64,000 bases of DNA from the IMG/VR virus record IMGVR_UViG_3300030376_006611, positions 549 through 64,548 of that record. The stretch is one strand, 5' to 3'. The stretch comes from a virus. Taxonomy: Duplodnaviria > Caudoviricetes. The notes beneath the pieces were generated by a model. That model did no database searches. It was not told the origin of the DNA and worked only from the letters and a program-made list of their open reading frames with translations. This document shows, in pieces, positions 48,225 to 58,498 of the stretch (the first letter of the stretch is position 1; every line of letters begins with the position of its first letter). Made by a program: the position numbers and the translations under genes.

Positions 48225-48343
48225 TCGCATTCGCATGGTTTGTGTGGTGGCCTTCCGTTCTTTGGTGGTTCGTATTTGTCGTAGTCGGTGACGCCACCAC
48301 AACAGGGGCATCTACCGCGCTTGATGTATTCTTCAATCTTCAT
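48215..48343 (-). CDS. 42-aa Cys-rich, probably zinc-binding peptide
   Basis: CPCCGG...CECEC. Confidence 0.5.
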   Translation of the reverse strand: MKIEEYIKRGRCPCCGGVTDYDKYEPPKNGRPPHKPCECECY

Positions 48344-48929
48344 TCTTGTTTTCTTCTTGGTCGTCAACCCCGTGGATACGGCACTCGAAATCCTTGTCAG
48401 CACACAGGTTCTTGAGTGCGTCTACTACAAAGGACTCTTCGTACTGACCAACTTTGTCGCGCATCCAGTCGAGGTCAAGCTCAGCATCGAGATGGATGTC
48501 TCGTGCGAATGTCACCTCGAAGTCACCGCAGTATTCATTCTCGCATACGTTGATGGTCTGCCCTTCGAGCTCAGCAACAGCATCATTGATGCCTGACTGC
48601 ACACCTTCACGGAAGATGGCGATGGCTACCGCCTTGGGGATGACGGGCATAGTAGGGGTGTCTTCACGAAGGCGGTCAAGGGCTGCTGTCTCTATCTTAA
48701 GACACTCTTTAAGGTTAGCAACCTCACGTTCGAGCATGACGATGTCGTCGTACTGACCCTGCACCTTGGCTTCGAGCTCTTGCACCTGCTTGGTCAGCGC
48801 CTCCTCACGTCCTGTCTGCTCTTGGGATTTGGCGATGGACTCAATGGTTTGCTTTGCAGTAGAGATAGCGTCCTCTGCGTAGCGGATGCTTGCTTCAAGC
48901 TCCTGCTTGGATTTCTGTATTGGATTCAT
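48333..48929 (-). CDS. Coiled-coil plus acidic early protein (start revised from 49091)
   Basis: MNPIQKSKQELE; ATGA overlap with the upstream ORF. Confidence 0.65.
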   Translation of the reverse strand: MNPIQKSKQELEASIRYAEDAISTAKQTIESIAKSQEQTGREEALTKQVQELEAKVQGQYDDIVMLEREVANLKECLKIETAALDRLREDTPTMPVIPKAVAIAIFREGVQSGINDAVAELEGQTINVCENEYCGDFEVTFARDIHLDAELDLDWMRDKVGQYEESFVVDALKNLCADKDFECRIHGVDDQEENKNED

Positions 48930-49120
48930 GGGTTGATAGGTTTTTTGAGTTTGAGTTTGAGTTGTTCTGATGCGTAGTTGATGTGTTTCTGCGTTGTAAC
49001 TGACACGATTCCAGGTAGTTGCTGTAACCTGTTGCCTTGGATGCGAGCGACAGGTGTCCCGTAGCTGACAACGTAGCCGTTGGTCGTCCATAGGTTTTGT
49101 TTGAATCGTGGGAATCTCAT
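48926..49120 (-). CDS. Early hypothetical protein (SYGTPVA...SVTTQKHIN family)
   Basis: Overlap-coupled; recalled phage motif. Confidence 0.6.
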   Translation of the reverse strand: MRFPRFKQNLWTTNGYVVSYGTPVARIQGNRLQQLPGIVSVTTQKHINYASEQLKLKLKKPINP

Positions 49121-49344: not shown

Positions 49345-49573
49345 TGTCTGTAAATTTTGGGGATTCATTCATGATAAACTTGGACACGAGGTCCTCGATT
49401 TCGCTGACAACCTCGTCCACGTCGCCGTGTGTGAGGTCGTACTCCTTAATCATGAGGCGGGCTAGTTGTTGGTAGCCGCTTACGTCGAGGGTCTGGCCGT
49501 CGAGATTGTAGCCACGGTGGTTGAAGCAGTCACTAACGTAGCACCGCAGGTCGTATAAGGTTTCGTCAATCAT
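49331..49573 (-). CDS. Acidic early hypothetical protein
   Basis: Tracked ORF. Confidence 0.6.
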   Translation of the reverse strand: MIDETLYDLRCYVSDCFNHRGYNLDGQTLDVSGYQQLARLMIKEYDLTHGDVDEVVSEIEDLVSKFIMNESPKFTDNEEH

Positions 49574-49731
49574 TGTATGTTGTCGTTGTAAAGGTTTGAA
49601 AGGTCTTCGTACAGCTCCATCAGGTGCTGTTGAACGTCGAAGTCAGGGGTGTCTTGTAGCTCCATGTACTCCTCCATCCTGTCCATGAACACTGAACCGA
49701 TGGAGGCCATTGTCGCTGTCATGTTACTCAT
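49570..49731 (-). CDS. Small acidic early protein
   Basis: MSNMTATMAS; start revised from 49800. Confidence 0.5.
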   Translation of the reverse strand: MSNMTATMASIGSVFMDRMEEYMELQDTPDFDVQQHLMELYEDLSNLYNDNIQ

Positions 49732-49891
49732 TGTCTTCAAAGTATTCGTTATACAATTCGTCAATCTGTTCGTCAGCGATATCCTTGAGGTCTTCCTCAA
49801 TGGATTCGTAGACGTAGTGGTACATGGTCTTCCAATCCATACCCTGCACTACGCTTTCGATGTAGCGGTCAATCTTTTCTTCACGAGTCAT
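49724..49891 (-). CDS. 55-aa highly acidic early protein, not in ORF track
   Basis: MTREEKIDRY...EEDLKDIADEQIDELYNEYFEDNE. Confidence 0.65.
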   Translation of the reverse strand: MTREEKIDRYIESVVQGMDWKTMYHYVYESIEEDLKDIADEQIDELYNEYFEDNE

Positions 49892-50465
49892 AGCTGTCAG
49901 AGTTTTTGGGTTTGGGGATACGGAAAGCGTGAATCACGTAGTCGTCAACGTCGATGAAGGCGTGTTTGCCCATGTACACTTGATGGATGAAGTCAGTCAG
50001 TTGCTCAAGGTTGTCGATGGCATCCGTGGTGGTGTCCATCACATCGGAGGACACACGAGCCACCAAGGACATGCACAAGGGGGTGTAGTCCCATGCAGGG
50101 GAGGCATCGAGTTGGTCCCACGTCAACCAACAGGACTCGGTGGAGTCACTGCGGTTGGACATATCAAGCTCGATGATGCGGAACACCTCGACACTCACGT
50201 CATCCATGTTCTCTGCAACGTAGTCGTCGTGCTCCATGTCAGAGGGGACGCAAGCGTGGTAGTTCTCGTGGTCACGAGTGAGGGTGACGTAGATGTCCTC
50301 CTCTCGGTGGTCGATGTTGACACACATCTCATCCTTGCGGTAGCCGTCAAGGAGTTGCTTGACGTGCTTGTCTGCAAGCCCCCTGTCGGGGAAGAACTCA
50401 CAGGTGGTGTCGGAGTACCCTTCGAAGAGTCCTGCGACAGCGTGGATTACTGCGTACTGCTTCAT
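49881..50465 (-). CDS. Acidic early protein
   Basis: D/E-rich 194-aa ORF. Confidence 0.7.
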   Translation of the reverse strand: MKQYAVIHAVAGLFEGYSDTTCEFFPDRGLADKHVKQLLDGYRKDEMCVNIDHREEDIYVTLTRDHENYHACVPSDMEHDDYVAENMDDVSVEVFRIIELDMSNRSDSTESCWLTWDQLDASPAWDYTPLCMSLVARVSSDVMDTTTDAIDNLEQLTDFIHQVYMGKHAFIDVDDYVIHAFRIPKPKNSDSYDS

Positions 50466-50689
50466 TACTTGTAGGTTTTTTCGATGATGAGGTCAGATGC
50501 CTCGTCGATGTTGGAGATGAGTGTGGCAAGAGGGGTCTTGCATGAGTGCTTACCCTCCAAGGCGGCACATGACATACTCATCAGTTGTGCCACATCTCGG
50601 TGGCGACTGAAGTTGAGGATGAGGGTGACCTTGCTCAGGTCCTCTTGGATAGCTTCGGCAAGTTGCCGTGTGTTCATGTCTTGTAGCAT
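50465..50689 (-). CDS. Early hypothetical protein
   Basis: Preceded by the CAAACTTCAA leader motif. Confidence 0.65.
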   Translation of the reverse strand: MLQDMNTRQLAEAIQEDLSKVTLILNFSRHRDVAQLMSMSCAALEGKHSCKTPLATLISNIDEASDLIIEKTYK

Positions 50690-50720
50690 GATGGATTAAA
50701 TTGAAGTTTGTAAAAATTAG

Positions 50721-50848
50721 TAGCAGAGGGTGGAGTCGAACCACCACACCCCTCATGTTCGTTGCCATAAGCCCGTGGTAACGGGTGAAAGGAACCTTGA
50801 TTGGGATGCACACACCTCCTACATCCTCATGTAGTAAGTGTCACTGCC
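50721..50848 (-). ncRNA. 128-nt tRNA-like structured RNA (U0)
   Basis: Acceptor GGCAGTG/CTCTGCT plus A; T-arm GGTGG-TTCGACT-CCACC; 12-bp hairpin and long irregular arm in between; directly downstream of promoter P4. Confidence 0.62.
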
Positions 50849-50868
50849 ATTGTGGAAAAGCCTCGACA

Positions 50869-50901
50869 CAAAGATACGGAATTGATGTGGACAATTCCAA
50901 A
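50869..50901 (-). promoter_or_regulatory. Early promoter P4 (TTTGG...TATCTTTG) with DnaA-box-like spacer
   Basis: -7 at 50869-50876, -33 at 50897-50901, TTGTCCACA at 50886-50894. Confidence 0.75.
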
Positions 50902-50936
50902 TTTGTGTTGAAAAGATTTGTTAAAGGCTTGGTTAG

Positions 50937-51016
50937 AAGGGAGGTTGGGAATTGAACACAACTGCCATCCTTGGCGCCGTGTAGCACCTTGATGTACGCA
51001 CCGACTGCGCTCCCTT
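50937..51016 (-). ncRNA. 80-nt tRNA-like cloverleaf (U1)
   Basis: 7-bp AAGGGAG/CTCCCTT stem, CGCA/TGCG hairpin, interrupted central arm, T-like loop TTCAATT. Confidence 0.52.
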
Positions 51017-51027
51017 GAAAATCAAAG

Positions 51028-51094
51028 GGGAAGAGGTAGTATCCTATCTACACGCCTACATCTGACGTCAGCCCTGTAATATGCTGCTCTTCCC
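51028..51094 (-). ncRNA. 67-nt spacerless four-way cloverleaf (U2)
   Basis: 8-bp GGGAAGAG/CTCTTCCC stem plus CAGC(10)GCTG, ACGTC(7)GGCGT and GTAG(8)CTAC arms with no junction nucleotides; a G-U pair favours the minus strand. Confidence 0.55.
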
Positions 51095-51104
51095 TGAAAA
51101 AGGT

Positions 51105-51162
51105 GGGGGGAGGGCGTGACGTTTCACGCTTGCCTTACGATTGCATCCCGAAAGGTCCCCCC
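51105..51162 (-). ncRNA. 58-nt mini-cloverleaf (U3)
   Basis: 7-bp GGGGGGA/TCCCCCC stem enclosing CC-TTTC-GG, TGC(9)GCA and GCGTGA-AACG-TCACGC; followed by ACC. Confidence 0.48.
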
Positions 51163-51178
51163 TTGGTCAAACTTCAAA

Positions 51179-51388
51179 CTAACCAATACCGCTTACGATG
51201 TCCATCGCTTTGGTCATCGCATAAGTTCGCTGTTGCATGCCCGTCCCTGCACGTTGTGGGGATGGCAAGTACACGAAGGTAGAGAATGTTTTGTCATTCT
51301 CCAAGCCCTCGATTGAATATCCTTTCTCACCTCGCATGATGGCGTCCGCCATGGCGTTAGTGTGGTAAATCTTTTCTTGAAGTGTCAT
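51179..51388 (-). CDS. Early hypothetical protein
   Basis: Tracked ORF with the leader motif upstream. Confidence 0.65.
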   Translation of the reverse strand: MTLQEKIYHTNAMADAIMRGEKGYSIEGLENDKTFSTFVYLPSPQRAGTGMQQRTYAMTKAMDIVSGIG

Positions 51389-51525
51389 GTCTTCTGTTGT
51401 TTTGAAGTTTGATATTCGTCGTGTGCTTTCTCGACCGCTCTGTTCAGCATCTCTGCCTCTGCTCGGTCGATCGACTGCCCCTGCATGCGGGCAAGTTGGA
51501 TGATTACGTCTACGATGTCAGTCAT
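51385..51525 (-). CDS. 46-aa early protein, not in ORF track
   Basis: MTDIVDVIIQLARMQG; ATGA overlap downstream. Confidence 0.55.
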   Translation of the reverse strand: MTDIVDVIIQLARMQGQSIDRAEAEMLNRAVEKAHDEYQTSKQQKT

Positions 51526-51700
51526 GGTTGTGTCTGCTTGTTGGTGTAATTTCCATGGTTACGTCCCATGTGGCTTGGCAGTCCTCGCATTCGAAGTCGT
51601 GGCACTGCTGTACCCAACCTCCTGCGCTGAATCCTGTTTCTTGTGAGCCGAGGAAGATTCCCTCGCCTCCGCACTTGTGGCATTTATTTTGTTGTGTCAT
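51518..51700 (-). CDS. Zinc-ribbon early protein (start revised from 51796)
   Basis: CHKCGG...CEDC. Confidence 0.6.
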   Translation of the reverse strand: MTQQNKCHKCGGEGIFLGSQETGFSAGGWVQQCHDFECEDCQATWDVTMEITPTSRHNHD

Positions 51701-51891
51701 TTGTCTGTTGTTTCTGCTCCCCACCACGCAATCTCTTCGTCGTGGATGCGGAACTCGTGGCATTCTTGCAGTTCGTTTTCCCATACCCCGACCCACACGC
51801 CGTGGTCGTCAGGTGCTCCCTGTATATGGGCGGCTTGGAATCCTTTTTTTTGCAGTGCTTTGACTGCACGTTCGCATTGTTCTTGTGTCAT
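51697..51891 (-). CDS. Early hypothetical protein
   Basis: ATGA overlaps on both sides. Confidence 0.6.
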   Translation of the reverse strand: MTQEQCERAVKALQKKGFQAAHIQGAPDDHGVWVGVWENELQECHEFRIHDEEIAWWGAETTDK

Positions 51892-52217
51892 AGGTCAATG
51901 ATTACGCCCTTGTCTTTGAGGGCATTGATGATGTAGTCAGGGAGTTCGAAGCATCCGTCGTAGCCAACGAGTCGTGCCGACTTGTTCCCACCTTGTGGGT
52001 CTTGGTCGAAGTCAACTTCGAGGCATCCTTCTGCATAGAAGCGGTCCCCTCCTGTTTCGAGGTCATAGGTTTCGTACCACCCGCCCATGCCGTGGTCGGG
52101 GTCAACCTCGATGGTGGTGTCCATCTCCACGTTAGTGGCTCGGTCGAGGTCAATGTCCATGGATGTGGTCATAGCTACATGTGGTAGCGTGTGTTTGAAG
52201 TCGTGCTTGAATTTCAT
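51888..52217 (-). CDS. Acidic early protein (G.WYE...FYAEG.L...GYDGCFELP family)
   Basis: Motif; overlap-coupled. Confidence 0.65.
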   Translation of the reverse strand: MKFKHDFKHTLPHVAMTTSMDIDLDRATNVEMDTTIEVDPDHGMGGWYETYDLETGGDRFYAEGCLEVDFDQDPQGGNKSARLVGYDGCFELPDYIINALKDKGVIIDL

Positions 52218-52444
52218 GCTTCGGGGGTTTCGATTTGGTCAGCGAGGAACACCAACTCGTCGATGATTGCGCCAACGTGTTCAGCGTCAGCGTCAGGCAT
52301 CATTGTGAGGAGGGAGGCAAAGCCCTTCACGTCCTTGGGTACGAGCCGAGCGCACCGATTCAGGTTGTTCAGCCGAGCGCCAAAGTGAAAGTCATTGAGG
52401 AAGAGGACTGCGCGTCCTACGGGTTGTTCAAAGAAGTTGTCCAT
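52214..52444 (-). CDS. Early hypothetical protein
   Basis: First gene after promoter P3. Confidence 0.65.
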   Translation of the reverse strand: MDNFFEQPVGRAVLFLNDFHFGARLNNLNRCARLVPKDVKGFASLLTMMPDADAEHVGAIIDELVFLADQIETPEA

Positions 52445-52468
52445 TGTATTGGGGTTTGAAGTTCGGTG

Positions 52469-52500
52469 TAAAGATACAGCAATTTGTGGATGAATCCAAA
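52469..52500 (-). promoter_or_regulatory. Early promoter P3 (TTTGG...TATCTTTA) with DnaA-box-like spacer
   Basis: Near-copy of P4 including upstream TTAACAAATCTTTTCAAC; TCATCCACA at 52485-52493. Confidence 0.72.
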
Positions 52501-52526
52501 TTCCTGTTGAAAAGATTTGTTAATGC

Positions 52527-52691
52527 TCAGTAGTCACGGGTTGTGATGCCGAACATCCGCAGGTCAATGTAGATGTCCTCGTCCCATGCGTCCTCGATGA
52601 GGCGCAACGCCTCCCTGTCGTCCGTGTATGTGAAGTTTTCGTACGCGAGGATTTTCTCCTCCGCGTTCAGTTCTCTGAATGGATTAAACAT
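52527..52691 (-). CDS. 54-aa acidic early protein (start revised from 52745)
   Basis: MFNPFRELNAEE with the leader motif upstream. Confidence 0.6.
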   Translation of the reverse strand: MFNPFRELNAEEKILAYENFTYTDDREALRLIEDAWDEDIYIDLRMFGITTRDY

Positions 52692-52725
52692 TTGCTTGAA
52701 GTTTGATGGTGTAACTATCTGATTG

Positions 52726-52872
52726 TCAGGCCTTCCACACCTCATCCAACATCCAACCTTTCGTGCGTTCGATGTGTGTGATGAAGTTTGCGATGTGCCT
52801 CCCGTCCTCGAAGTCTCGGGTCATTGACCATTTCTTACCGCAGGACATGATGAATTGAATTGTAGCTCTCAT
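52726..52872 (-). CDS. 48-aa early protein, not in ORF track
   Basis: MRATIQFIMSCGKKWSMTRDFEDGRHIANFI; ATGA overlap upstream. Confidence 0.6.
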   Translation of the reverse strand: MRATIQFIMSCGKKWSMTRDFEDGRHIANFITHIERTKGWMLDEVWKA

Positions 52873-52973
52873 TTGTCTAATTTATTGAGTGCATAGTCCA
52901 CGAGGACGACGAACAGCGCTCCGCTCACGAATACCACCGCGAACGATACGAGCAGGACTACCGCCTCGCTCAT
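52869..52973 (-). CDS. 34-aa single-helix membrane peptide
   Basis: MSEAVVLLVSFAVVFVSGALFVVLVDYALNKLDK. Confidence 0.6.
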   Translation of the reverse strand: MSEAVVLLVSFAVVFVSGALFVVLVDYALNKLDK

Positions 52974-53092
52974 GACTGCTTGCGCTTGGCGTTGGACATT
53001 GCATCCATAGCCATGCCCGTGAGCATGATGATGCCGACTACACCACACGCTCCTGCGAGCACGAGGTTGATGTTGAAAAGGACCTGAATCAT
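52970..53092 (-). CDS. 40-aa single-helix membrane peptide, not in ORF track
   Basis: MIQVLFNINLVLAGACGVVGIIMLTGMAMDAMSNAKRKQS; leader motif upstream, ATGA overlap downstream. Confidence 0.6.
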   Translation of the reverse strand: MIQVLFNINLVLAGACGVVGIIMLTGMAMDAMSNAKRKQS

Positions 53093-53152
53093 TGTGTATA
53101 GGTTTGAAGTTTGACACAGACGCCTCACGGCGTTTCGCGCAATCAGCGCTCG

Positions 53153-53323
53153 TCAGTGTGCCTGTGTGCCGATGAGGTCAGCCAAGGTCAGGTCATCGTC
53201 TCCGAATTTGGTGGCAACCTCGGTGAGCGTGTACTCTACAGGGAATCCGAAGTCAAGGAGTTGGGTCAAGGCTTTGACGCGCTCTTGTCGCGCCGTGGTG
53301 GGGGTTGATGCTTTGTTTGGCAT
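53153..53323 (-). CDS. 56-aa early protein (start revised from 53374)
   Basis: First gene after promoter P2. Confidence 0.6.
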   Translation of the reverse strand: MPNKASTPTTARQERVKALTQLLDFGFPVEYTLTEVATKFGDDDLTLADLIGTQAH

Positions 53324-53343
53324 GGTGTTGAAGTTTGATGGTT

Positions 53344-53375
53344 GCAAGATACAACCGAATTGTGGATAAACCAAA
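53344..53375 (-). promoter_or_regulatory. Early promoter P2 (TTTGG...TATCTTGC) containing a perfect DnaA box
   Basis: TTATCCACA at 53361-53369. Confidence 0.7.
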
Positions 53376-53406
53376 TGTTTTTGTTATGTCGCTGTCAGTC
53401 AGAGAG

Positions 53407-54123
53407 TTACAAGATGTCGTCGGCAGTCACGCCTCCGTCCATCATGTCCATGTTCACCGCACGCAACATGTCCATCACGTCCGTGTACCCCTGCTCGCGC
53501 AGTACGCTGATGGGCGTGGGTGGTGTGTAGTCGGCCGCGTGCTGTGGGCGTGCCTTGGGCGCAGGTGCGTCAACCTCCGTGCGTGTGCCGAATGGTGATG
53601 CCTTGGTGGGCTTGTTGTCGCACACGACATCGGTCTTGCGCACGTTACGCTTGGCGCTCGCGCGGTTGCTCAGGCGCTGTGCCTGTGCCTCCAACTTGTC
53701 GTTCTTGGTCTTGCGCTTGGTCGTGCGCTTGGCCTTCGTGCGCTTGGGTGCGGGAGGCGTGGTGTCCTCCTGCACGTCCACGGGTGTGTACGTGTTGGCC
53801 GTTTGGCAGGCGTCCATGATGTCGAACATCTGCTCCATCGTCAGCCCGTACTGCTTGCACAGCACGTCCGCACGGGACTGCTTCGCAGTCTTGGCTTTGG
53901 CTTTGGGCTTGGCCTTGCGCTTGCGCTTGAGCTGCTCGGGCGATGGCTCGCTCGTGATGCCCAGTTCCTCGAACAACTGCTTGCCCGTCTTGGGCTTCGC
54001 GCTCTTGCGCTTGGCCGCTTGCTCCTGTGCGAACTTGGCTTTGTTCGCGGCACGGCGCTCGGCACGGGTCAACTTGCGCCCCGTCTCGGGGCAGTGGGTG
54101 GGGGTGTACGTCTGTGCAGACAT
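53407..54123 (-). CDS. Lys/Ala/Arg-rich first early protein (start revised from 54189)
   Basis: MSAQTYTPTHCPETGRK; very GC-rich codons; leader motif and promoter P1 upstream. Confidence 0.7.
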   Translation of the reverse strand: MSAQTYTPTHCPETGRKLTRAERRAANKAKFAQEQAAKRKSAKPKTGKQLFEELGITSEPSPEQLKRKRKAKPKAKAKTAKQSRADVLCKQYGLTMEQMFDIMDACQTANTYTPVDVQEDTTPPAPKRTKAKRTTKRKTKNDKLEAQAQRLSNRASAKRNVRKTDVVCDNKPTKASPFGTRTEVDAPAPKARPQHAADYTPPTPISVLREQGYTDVMDMLRAVNMDMMDGGVTADDIL

Positions 54124-54171
54124 GGGTAAAAAGTTTGAAGTTTGTTCGATTCGACCGCCGAACCGATGACC

Positions 54172-54203
54172 CAAAGATAGGGAAATCAAACCCTGATGTC
54201 AAG
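54172..54203 (-). promoter_or_regulatory. Early promoter P1 (TTG...TATCTTTG)
   Basis: CAAAGATA on the plus strand at 54172-54179 with TTG about 20 nt upstream. Confidence 0.65.
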
Positions 54204-54464
54204 CCAACGGATGTTAACGTCAGCAATGACGGGGGATGCAGAGCCAAAGTTATACGAGGTTATGTTCATTGTGTGTACCCATGAGCGGGGATGCATGGTT
54301 GCAGTAAAGGTAGAGGTGAGGTATTGTCCCACCTTCGGGTAGAGCTACATGTCTGCGGTCACCTGATGCGATGATGGAAGTAACGATGCGTAAGTCACTG
54401 GGAGACAAGCGATTGCAATCTCAGAAGTAAATCTCCGTAGTATGGCAGAATCAAGGGAGGGGGG

Positions 54465-54485
54465 TTTGGAAATGTAATTTCCAAA
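54465..54485. repeat. Perfect 9-bp inverted repeat TTTGGAAAT-GTA-ATTTCCAAA
   Basis: Seen directly; lies in the non-coding divergence region. Confidence 0.85.
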
Positions 54486-54682
54486 AGATTTGCGTCTGTA
54501 CATACATACATATAATCCCCCCTATGCTTAGTTCTGATCGTTTTTTTCGACCCAAAACCGAAAAAACAGCCGATATCTGCAGAAATTTTCACGCGGTATT
54601 TTTTGATTGACTCCACTCAACCCCTCATAACTGTCTGATTTAGAGGTAAAAGCGGTATTTAACCTCTAGTAGAGCTTGAATC

Positions 54683-54714
54683 TTGACATTTAAAGATTTC
54701 TGTTATAACTTTGC
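54683..54714 (+). promoter_or_regulatory. Plus-strand promoter (TTGACA...TAACTTTGC) starting the late arm
   Basis: TAnnTTTG at 54706-54713, TTG upstream. Confidence 0.6.
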
Positions 54715-54813
54715 TATCCAATCAAGTGCAAAACAGTCGAAATAGTAGGGTGTGTGTATACACATTACACCATCCGATCTAGATTTAACTGTTAAATACG
54801 GGATAGCTGTACA

Positions 54814-55107
54814 ATGAGACTAAGTAAGCGCAAGAAACCACACTCTGCACCGCGTCAAGGGACTAGAAAGAACCCAGATGGGTCTGAGTCTACGCATTTG
54901 TATGCGACAGAGACCTTAGACGGTAAGAATTGGGTTAGCTTCCCCACTCTATTTCAGAATCAGGACGGATCGTGGCTAGATATGTCTCAGGGCAACTGGG
55001 AGGATGCCTATAGAGAAGCAGAAAAAAGAGGGGAGGTGATTGACTTCGGCAGAAGAAAGAATAAAGCACTAGCTTTTGGTGAGGGTAGCTGGAAGGGGGA
55101 TCAATAA
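54814..55107 (+). CDS. Conserved phage hypothetical protein (STHL...FPTLF...GE.I.F...A.AF..GSWK)
   Basis: Motif; first gene of the plus arm. Confidence 0.65.
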   Translation: MRLSKRKKPHSAPRQGTRKNPDGSESTHLYATETLDGKNWVSFPTLFQNQDGSWLDMSQGNWEDAYREAEKRGEVIDFGRRKNKALAFGEGSWKGDQ

Positions 55108-55112
55108 CCTCG

Positions 55113-55121
55113 TATATTTGC
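55113..55121 (+). promoter_or_regulatory. -7 promoter element TATATTTGC
   Basis: Just before the ATG at 55125. Confidence 0.7.
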
Positions 55122-55124
55122 CTC

Positions 55125-55415
55125 ATGCTACTGATAAAGATCTCCGAGAGCGGTTATCGCAGAGACAGTGAGGACCAGCACAACGACCACAATGTGATTA
55201 TGACGGGCTGCATCTCTATGGATGCGGTAGATTACCCCGTTGTAGGTATGGATGAGCTCGGGAACATCAAGATCATGATGCCTGGGTCCAAGCACAACTT
55301 CGAAGGTGAGAGGGTACTTGAGGTACCGCTTAAGCATGACGAGTACAATCACATGAGTCAGGACGATATCTATGATCTCGTTCGTATTAAGGCTGCAGAA
55401 ACGGGTTTCTGTTAA
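55125..55415 (+). CDS. crAss-like small virion-associated domain protein
   Basis: GYRRDS...ISM..V.YPV.G.D..GN...M.PG....F.G..V.E.P pattern. Confidence 0.55.
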   Translation: MLLIKISESGYRRDSEDQHNDHNVIMTGCISMDAVDYPVVGMDELGNIKIMMPGSKHNFEGERVLEVPLKHDEYNHMSQDDIYDLVRIKAAETGFC

Positions 55416-55420
55416 TCCCG

Positions 55421-55429
55421 TATATTTGC
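55421..55429 (+). promoter_or_regulatory. -7 promoter element TATATTTGC
   Basis: Just before the ATG at 55434. Confidence 0.7.
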
Positions 55430-55433
55430 AGCA

Positions 55434-56183
55434 ATGGATCTAATCAAGGATATCGGTAAATCTCTGAAATTCAAGGAGCGCTATGACGACCTTGAGCGTA
55501 CAGGGATGGAGGAGTACGATAGAAAGGAGTGTAAGGAGCTACGTGAGCTAAGCAAGAGCGGGGCACCGCTTTCAGAGTCGCAGAAAGAGACCCTTCACTA
55601 CTGTGATACTATCAAAGGAGAGCGCACTAGGGCCGCCATGAACCTAGGAACCTCAGCCCTAAAGATCGGGGTGGGTGCCGCGACGGGCAATGTTGGACTA
55701 ATTACTCAAGGGGTCGGTGATGCTGGTGGATATGTCATGTCTGAGGCCCAGGAGGTAGACGGCCCTAACGACGGGGTTGGACAGAAGATCGGTAAGGAGG
55801 ACTACATGAAGCTCGGCACGGATATCGTAAGCGGTGTCGGTGCATACGCTATGGGTGGTCAAGGGGCAGAAGGTGTTGGCGGGACAGGAACTGGCGGTGG
55901 CGACGGGACAGGAACTGGGACTGGAGGTGCTGGAGGTGCTGGAGGTGCTGGAGGTGCTGGGAACACATTCAACATGATGCAGACCCTTATGCAGAACCCT
56001 CAGTTTATGCAGATGATGATGCAGCAGATGCAGGGTCAGCAGGGCGCTCAGGATGCATTTCAGACGGGTGGCGCGACAGGAACATTAGACTTCTTGGCAA
56101 AGCAAAACGATCAAGGATCAAAACTAAAGCGGTCAACACGACAGCACGACTATATTAAAGGAAACACTAGAGGCTATAGATAA
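55434..56183 (+). CDS. Gly-rich putative cargo/pilot protein
   Basis: Glycine-zipper-like segments, GGA repeats, M/Q-rich tail. Confidence 0.55.
   Translation: MDLIKDIGKSLKFKERYDDLERTGMEEYDRKECKELRELSKSGAPLSESQKETLHYCDTIKGERTRAAMNLGTSALKIGVGAATGNVGLITQGVGDAGGYVMSEAQEVDGPNDGVGQKIGKEDYMKLGTDIVSGVGAYAMGGQGAEGVGGTGTGGGDGTGTGTGGAGGAGGAGGAGNTFNMMQTLMQNPQFMQMMMQQMQGQQGAQDAFQTGGATGTLDFLAKQNDQGSKLKRSTRQHDYIKGNTRGYR
55923..55958 (+). repeat. (GGAGGTGCT)4 coding tandem repeat
   Basis: Four exact 9-bp copies encoding GGA x4. Confidence 0.95.
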
Positions 56184-58249: not shown

Positions 58250-58498
58250 GTTATTTAATTTGTGGGTTATGAACAAAGGATGTAGATGATTGAAATGATG
58301 GCTGCTAATACTGTATACTTCATGGTTGGATTGAATTTTGTAACTTTGTCTAAATCGCTGATCTCAGTATATGCAGAACTTTCGGTATTCACAAATTTGG
58401 CTTGCAAAAAAACCTTAACGACTTGAGAAAGCCGTACTTTAACGCCAAGAAAAAACGAAAGGACTCCTCTGTGGAGAACGAAAAAAGAAGACTTCACA

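Follow-up and report, generated by a model that had tools for sequence, protein, structure and literature searches.

The window analysed here, a stretch of 64,000 nucleotides that makes up nearly the whole of a 64.5-kb IMG/VR virus record, carries on its minus strand a block of small early ORFs that runs from about position 54125 down past 50465. Pfam and PHROGs gave no family for the nine early ORFs tested and only weak matches for the downstream ORF at 48333-49091, and a blastn search of positions 50400-54400 against 50,697 cultured phage records returned no match. The closest cultured phages are the Flavobacterium 'elemo' and the Cellulophaga phi38:1-like phages, at 26-32% protein identity, and the portal and structural proteins are distantly related to those of podoviruses of Flavobacterium, Cellulophaga, Maribacter and Tenacibaculum. 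The promoters of the region are of the Bacteroidota TTG/TAnnTTTG type, and the phage is apparently lytic.

Seven of the minus-strand early genes are preceded by a leader box, which reads CAAACTTCAA or, in one case, CGAACTTCAA. Starting from the first early gene, the boxes lie at 54135-54144 (11 nt 5' of the ATG at 54123), 53328-53337 (4 nt 5' of the ATG at 53323 and directly downstream of a TATCTTGC -7-type promoter box), 53104-53113 (11 nt 5' of the ATG at 53093), 52696-52705 (4 nt 5' of the ATG at 52691), 52456-52465 (the CGAACTTCAA variant, 11 nt 5' of the ATG of ORF 52214-52444), 51402-51411 (13 nt 5' of the ATG of ORF 51179-51388) and 50701-50710 (11 nt 5' of the ATG of ORF 50465-50689, the first gene past an array of structured RNAs). 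Boxes are found only at genes with an intergenic spacer and are missing from overlap-coupled genes; the boxed genes are those that need independent initiation. Among 140 distinct leaders, the box ends 10-12 nt 5' of the ATG in 105, where it abuts a conserved proximal leader. Two further elements were seen near start codons. A small ACGCC-GUGA-GGCGU hairpin with a GNRA-type loop (53115-53135, minus strand) lies directly upstream of the 53104 box and recurs in the related genome G001 beside a decayed box (L034, 7085-7105). A second box variant, CAAAATTCAA, is present at 58331-58340 (minus strand), 7 nt 5' of an ATG outside the early cluster. It is also found before one gene of L027 and, in L037, before the homologue of a 194-aa gene; no inverted partner for it was seen.

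A single inverted copy of the box, here called the anti-leader (TTGAAGTTTG, 51168-51177, minus strand), lies on the sense strand of the early genes and is the complement of their leader boxes. It starts 1 nt past the TAG stop codon (51179-51181) of ORF 51179-51388, a 69-aa early ORF without Pfam or PHROG family that has its own box, and it ends 5 nt before a G-run at 51162, the start of a GC-rich stem-closed hairpin. The original prediction had described seven boxed early genes with one inverted copy, and a pattern search found them again at the same positions; it had also held that no plausible plus-strand ORF follows the inverted copy, and indeed the sole plus-strand ATG past it opens 8 codons. 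The pattern TTGAAGTTYG has eight matches in the window, seven on the plus strand and the one at 51168-51177 on the minus strand, compared with 0.40 expected, and eight matches were attained in 0 of 100 shuffles. No further exact copy in either orientation was found in the whole 64.5-kb record.

The perfect complementarity between the anti-leader and the leaders extends over 14 nt at 53104 (the longest), 13 nt at 54135, 12 nt at 51402, 11 nt at 52696 and 53328, and 10 nt at 50701 and 52456; the lengths first reported were correct on recomputation. In the variant box at 52456-52465, the G could wobble-pair with a U of the anti-leader. No general enrichment for wobble pairs was found among leaders with one mismatch, in which G-U-compatible changes made up 17 of 42, no different from expectation. 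The duplexes between the anti-leader and the early leaders have predicted energies of -16 to -23 kcal/mol, compared with a median of -10.4 kcal/mol over all candidate start regions.

Could the inverted copy be simply the -7 box of a promoter? Its sequence, read as a TAnnTTTG-like GAAGTTTG, would then drive the array, and the sense copies would be antisense promoters. The motif does end in TTTG, as does the Bacteroidota -7 box, and the first structured unit begins 5-10 nt past the inverted copy. However, its first position is G and not T, clear TATCTTTG promoters were recognized elsewhere in the region, a simple scan found nothing here, and the co-varying substitutions described below are located at or outside the 'nn' positions, at which no co-ordinated change is demanded of a promoter. 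A Bacteroidota sigma-A promoter, with a T-A start of the -7 box and a -33 TTG about 19 nt upstream, does not fit GAAGTTTG; a conserved -33 element is lacking because the sequence upstream is variable coding DNA. We regard a promoter as hardly credible.

The anti-leader lies in a hairpin (51163-51186, minus strand), which we delineated by folding, alignment and pair counts. Its stem is formed by UUGGUUAG and UUGACCAA and closes the loop UUUGAAGU. In the window the stem has 8 bp and the loop 8 nt, while 7 bp are conserved and most relatives carry the 7-nt loop UUGAAGU, so that the general fold reads UGGUURR-[UUGAAGU]-UUGACCA with 2-3 of the 7 stem pairs being G-U. The last three bases at the 3' end of the 10-mer core are part of the stem. 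Across 46 distinct sequences, 90.5% of the cells of the stem are paired, as opposed to 12-60% in controls with slid partners, and two core pairs show compensatory changes, UA to AU in one and UA to CG via UG in the other. RNAalifold, applied to a MAFFT alignment of this hairpin together with the GC-rich hairpin, gave the GC-rich hairpin only, since the alignment shifts and the stem is weak; for this reason an explicit structure was applied to a short alignment. Because of its G-U pairs, the hairpin is restricted to the sense strand of the early genes. The loop UUGAAGU, with its UUGA, conforms to the YUNR U-turn motif of 5-8-nt stem-closed loops, and the variant loop GUGAAGU retains UNR only.

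The TAG stop codon of the last ORF before the array (51179-51181) is located within the 5' arm of this hairpin, and the stop variants UGA, UAG and UAA in the 5' arm of relatives each pair with UU in the 3' arm. The block carries stop codons in all three frames (TGA in every frame of TTGGTTGATTGAAGTTTGACC). Of 46 distinct relatives, 45 have an upstream ORF that terminates within the stem or loop of the hairpin, whatever the ORF family. The ORFs entering the block come from several families unrelated to one another, and the early region as a whole is mosaic. These observations would suit a block that serves mainly as a translation barrier, shielding the array by three-frame stops and a hairpin, with the leader match as a by-product of cassette recombination. 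Yet a barrier has no need for a match to the leaders, it would not keep step with the leaders through a loop substitution or a 1-nt deletion, and it would not vanish along with the box, as we describe below. We therefore give this explanation little weight.

The anti-leader hairpin is always followed directly by the GC-rich hairpin, which in the window is the stem-closed unit U3 (51105-51162, minus strand), topped by a GUGAAACGUCAC hairpin and carrying an ACC-UUUUU tail on its 3' side. In relatives the apical TGAAACGTCA is invariant, the flanking pairs covary (CG, GC, GU, AU), and 41 of 47 unique modules have a U/C-rich tail (at least 4 U in the next 9 nt) past the hairpin. The U-tract is broken by ACC and lacking in some modules, and a simple terminator scan made no call. 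With a tail that is for the most part ACC and a run of U/C, the element resembles a leaky terminator or else a minihelix whose end is near-CCA. It carries an optional inserted hairpin. The anti-leader hairpin and the GC-rich hairpin constitute one module and are present or absent together. In G001, the module is found about 2.4 kb further downstream, past other genes, where it still matches the leaders and has the tRNA-like unit directly after it; its role is thus independent of any one neighbouring ORF. In the lineage of this genome the module lies ahead of a 155-aa gene (MNIFYLHEDPHVAA..., L034 10498-10965, plus strand) instead of the 194-aa gene, and so has moved as a unit.

The tRNA-like unit of the window (50937-51016, minus strand) combines an acceptor, a D and a T arm with a replacement for the anticodon arm. 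The three arms are conserved in more than 150 marine contigs (L010, L034, L075 and others), in which a hypervariable hairpin or insert, about 12 to over 100 nt long, stands in for the anticodon arm. ARAGORN found no tRNA at 50700-51200 of the window, nor in the arrays of 25 related loci. A cmscan of 49500-55500 against all 4227 Rfam families, with E-values up to 1, gave only a chance miRNA match elsewhere, and the tRNA and C4 models matched neither the array nor the anti-leader. A reading of the region as integron attC-like was dropped, as there was no core-site match and no integrase.

The original prediction had assigned to the tRNA-like folds the processing and stability of a multi-target antisense guide. 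The companion of the anti-leader turned out to be the GC-rich hairpin, and not the tRNA-like folds: the tRNA-like unit persists in relatives without the anti-leader, and in L029 and L036 a different structured RNA follows the two hairpins. In addition, the anti-leader hairpin lies 5' of the first stem-closed unit, so that an RNase P-type cut there would detach it from the tRNA-like RNAs. Of the proposed guide, the comparisons support a selected, co-varying element presented in a hairpin loop; membership of a processed and stable array RNA, action in trans and a shut-down of translation are its hypothetical parts.

Is this arrangement a common feature of related phages? Using the downstream 194-aa gene as a query, we obtained 34 related viral contigs with 49-88% protein identity, 33 of which were examined. 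Exactly one inverted copy was present in 26 of the 33, and 25 of these had sense boxes too; the remaining one, L019, is cut off upstream of the hairpin, with the sense boxes outside reach. The inverted copy lies 150-860 nt upstream of the 194-aa gene and always in the block TTGGTTRR-TTGAAGTTTG-ACCA, a flank that is absent from the sense copies. We also scanned metagenomes with an anchor placed solely on the RNA downstream of the hairpin, which makes the scan blind to the anti-leader sequence, and found the anti-leader hairpin in 117 of the 125 matches listed, from at least 120 loci. Among the 114 classified matches listed, the loop was UUGAAGU in 105, UUGAUGU in 4 and GUGAAGU in 3. In all 40 distinct contigs of the main type that extend at least 2.5 kb upstream, the upstream sequence contains 1-6 cognate boxes. 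Apart from the one in the hairpin, inverted copies amount to just two chance matches in coding regions and one palindromic assembly; the latter (L066/L139, a 9750-nt contig with the module at both ends, inverted) is probably an assembly artefact and was excluded from the counts. Overall, more than 150 contigs were found, and the same layout of several sense boxes with a single inverted copy is seen in more than 100 related marine viral or metagenomic contigs. The phages carrying the anti-leader are a widespread uncultured marine group, abundant in marine metagenomes.

Two other elements were observed in the wider group. In L008, L012, L013, L020, L024 and L026, a near-perfect palindrome of 30-40 nt (tatacactctcttcatttatgaagagtgtata and variants), often followed by the half-box ACTTCAA, separates the last structured RNA from the next gene's leader box. 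The Cellulophaga phage phi38:1 (L225) has a box of its own, AACACTATCAAA, 1-27 nt 5' of about 12 genes on the minus strand between 11 and 32 kb, as well as real tRNA arrays among tiny ORFs; a search of this phage for the same design gave no clear single inverted partner.

Box and anti-leader change together. In G001, L035 and L133, three to four boxes read CAAACATCAA and the one inverted copy reads TTGATGTTTG. The same pair occurs in G009 (three boxes, one inverted copy) on a module background unlike that of G001: the stem and the GC-rich hairpin are of the main type, and a quick tree of the 194-aa protein, a few rows of which are not true homologues, places the neighbouring gene among those of main-type phages. 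Background and tree position suggest a second, independent switch, and the placing of the two TTGATG lineages apart in this quick tree likewise hints at independent changes. In G006, G007, G008 and L186, three to four boxes read CAAACTTCAC and the single inverted copy GTGAAGTTTG. In L107, L109 and L124, the inverted copy has lost one U (TTGAAGTTG), and in L109 three of the five leaders lack the matching A (CAACTTCAA) and the other two are still of the old type, which looks like a change under way. Main-type leaders were not found in variant-type genomes. Box and anti-leader thus co-vary in at least three, and probably four or five, lineages.

Box and anti-leader are also gained and lost together. 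Three relatives, G010 (complete, 60.5 kb), G003 and G014, have neither box nor anti-leader hairpin nor GC-rich hairpin, and all three retain the tRNA-like unit as well as the A/U-rich proximal leader (AAUUCAAU...AUG), which indicates that the box is dispensable for translation as such. A possible counter-example to the co-occurrence is given by L119 and L184, whose hairpin loop reads UCGAAGU and in which no matching box (CAAACTTCGA) was found within 8.7 kb (4.7 kb upstream and 4 kb downstream); no longer contig of this lineage was present among the viral contigs searched. The expectation that relatives would keep the inverted copy and co-vary it with the box is thus borne out in at least three lineages, with a single copy in every relative that carries boxes, and loss of the inverted copy with retention of the box was not seen. 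Taken together, the comparisons support the view that the inverted copy is a selected element which co-evolves with the leader boxes.

A co-ordinated change of all copies in a genome would also be expected if all eight were sites of one phage or host protein, reading double-stranded DNA or RNA, that had changed its specificity, with the inverted copy acting, for example, as an operator or boundary. The early region is rich in proteins of no known family, which offer candidate factors. However, the sense copies have one orientation and a near-fixed distance to the start codons, also inside promoterless operons, and such a layout fits recognition of RNA rather than DNA. A protein that binds RNA, in turn, would not see the inverted copy. 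Nor would a protein reader explain why the inverted copy is part of a hairpin whose G-U pairs are strand-specific and whose stem shows compensatory changes, or why the conserved TTGGTTRR...ACCA flank is unique to it. We consider a common protein reader improbable.

We propose instead that the inverted copy acts as an antisense element encoded on the same strand as its targets, pairing with the leaders of early mRNAs and most likely repressing their translation, a reading to which we assign a probability of about 0.55. The anti-leader would be part of the early transcript from the minus strand, where the last ORF ahead of the structured-RNA array ends. Pairing with the box CAAACUUCAA would be nucleated by the loop UUGAAGU, with its U-turn-type UUGA start. 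In every early gene that is initiated independently, this box directly abuts the 5' side of the A/U-rich initiation region. Pairing could extend to 10-14 bp by opening of the weak, G-U-containing stem. The resulting duplex would cover mRNA positions of about -21 to -12 and most likely block loading of the 30S subunit or expose the leader to nucleases, so that one RNA may switch off or limit translation of the whole early gene set. The GC-rich hairpin with its U/C-rich tail could provide a stable 3' end, like a terminator or that of a 3'-UTR-derived sRNA. Ribosomes that reach the end of the upstream ORF would stop within the hairpin and so occlude it, which suggests that translation and the availability of the anti-leader compete. 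With one anti-leader for 5-9 targets on the same transcripts, a stable RNA in excess or a catalytic or cis action would be needed. The matched variation supports pairing between leader and anti-leader, and we infer that it would occur in vivo with a repressive effect, exerted in trans, from the 3' end of an mRNA or in cis.

In public seawater and sediment metatranscriptomes, contigs of 85-99%-similar relatives occur in small shares, and some contigs from RNA libraries, which may contain DNA, bridge the ORF, the hairpin, the GC-rich hairpin and the tRNA-like unit; such contigs show no ends, strand or level and are silent on processing either way. This bridging agrees, as a weak indication from contigs only, with a cis-structural role, in which the anti-leader pairs within the same polycistronic RNA and thereby affects its folding, processing or decay, for instance by defining where it is cleaved or by protecting its ends, or activates, with no separate RNA for a timed shut-off. 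Anti-leader and leaders share a strand and can be reached by the same promoters, there is one anti-leader to many leaders, and the hairpin with its internal ORF stop sits at the boundary between mRNA and array. Yet only one leader could be paired at a time in cis, whereas all leaders of a genome stay matched; the leaders are spread over several promoter units, and the module of G001 is kilobases away from them. A purely structural role in cis is, in our view, unlikely.

Repression and activation would both be compatible with the present results. The anti-leader RNA might be an activator, a virus-supplied surrogate of the SD/anti-SD interaction that preferentially recruits ribosomes to early mRNAs of the phage. 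Its loop, with the geometry of a 7-nt U-turn anticodon loop, would be joined to an acceptor/T-arm-like minihelix or to tRNA-like units, dock on the ribosome in trans and form base pairs with the box, which lies a short way 5' of the start region. We consider this very unlikely. A resemblance of the motif to what we take to be the 5' end of 16S rRNA (GAAGAGUUUGAUC) was dropped, because it needs a 2-nt gap and this region is buried in the ribosome. To our knowledge, translation in Flavobacteriia and other Bacteroidota is initiated without Shine-Dalgarno pairing, and we know of no Hfq and of hardly any studied RNA regulators in Bacteroidota.

If the proposed antisense pairing is functional, one short phage RNA would govern a set of early genes via a shared leader tag. 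Phage counterparts of such control are known only where proteins exert it (T4 RegA/RegB) or where a single operon is the target (P1 C4). At least three natural orthogonal pairs of tag and loop provide a ready specificity test and, possibly, a toolkit for orthogonal translational control in Flavobacteriia. The anti-leader of these Bacteroidota phages would be best grouped with the antisense controls that phages encode on the strand of the target, here with a regulon of several genes.

In T4-type phages, promoter-early stem-loop cassettes flank shuffled early genes and are thought to mediate recombination. The leader boxes resemble these cassettes in that a short conserved sequence is repeated before many small, mosaic early genes; the cassettes, as units of promoter and stem-loop, differ in having no single complementary partner that co-varies with them. 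T4 RegA, a translational repressor, and RegB, an endoribonuclease that cleaves GGAG there, shut off early mRNAs at their initiation regions (PMC3014915). Here, too, a short element is shared by the initiation regions of many early mRNAs and may have a similar function, but the proposed recogniser is an RNA loop acting by Watson-Crick pairing rather than a protein, and Pfam and PHROGs revealed no RegA or RegB homologue among the neighbouring ORFs. YUNR U-turn loops are known to accelerate antisense pairing (PMC4485353), and the 7-nt loop of the anti-leader begins with UUGA in the same manner; unlike in those antisense RNAs, the target here is linear and not a loop, and the GTGAAG variant lacks the Y. 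The order of a seed hairpin followed by a GC-rich hairpin and a U-rich tail at the 3' end of a coding operon is shared with 3'-UTR-derived sRNAs. A further comparison is with the C4 RNA of phages P1 and P7, which is released by processing of the transcript that also carries its target, uses its loops to mask a ribosome-binding site, shifts its specificity by matched substitutions in loop and target, and is embedded in structured RNA handled by tRNA-processing enzymes (PMC5320573). The anti-leader differs from C4 in matching no Rfam family, in having one recognition loop instead of two, in addressing 5-9 leaders on many early genes instead of one immunity operon, in its Bacteroidota host, and in that an RNase P cut at the stem-closed unit would detach and not release it. 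As with C4, anti-leader and leaders all lie on one strand, here the minus strand, in one gene cluster with no opposing genes between them, which points to co-transcription; the loop UUGAAGU and stem bases complement boxes 4-13 nt 5' of the start codons; and variation is matched, with three substitution or deletion variants accompanied by matching leaders.
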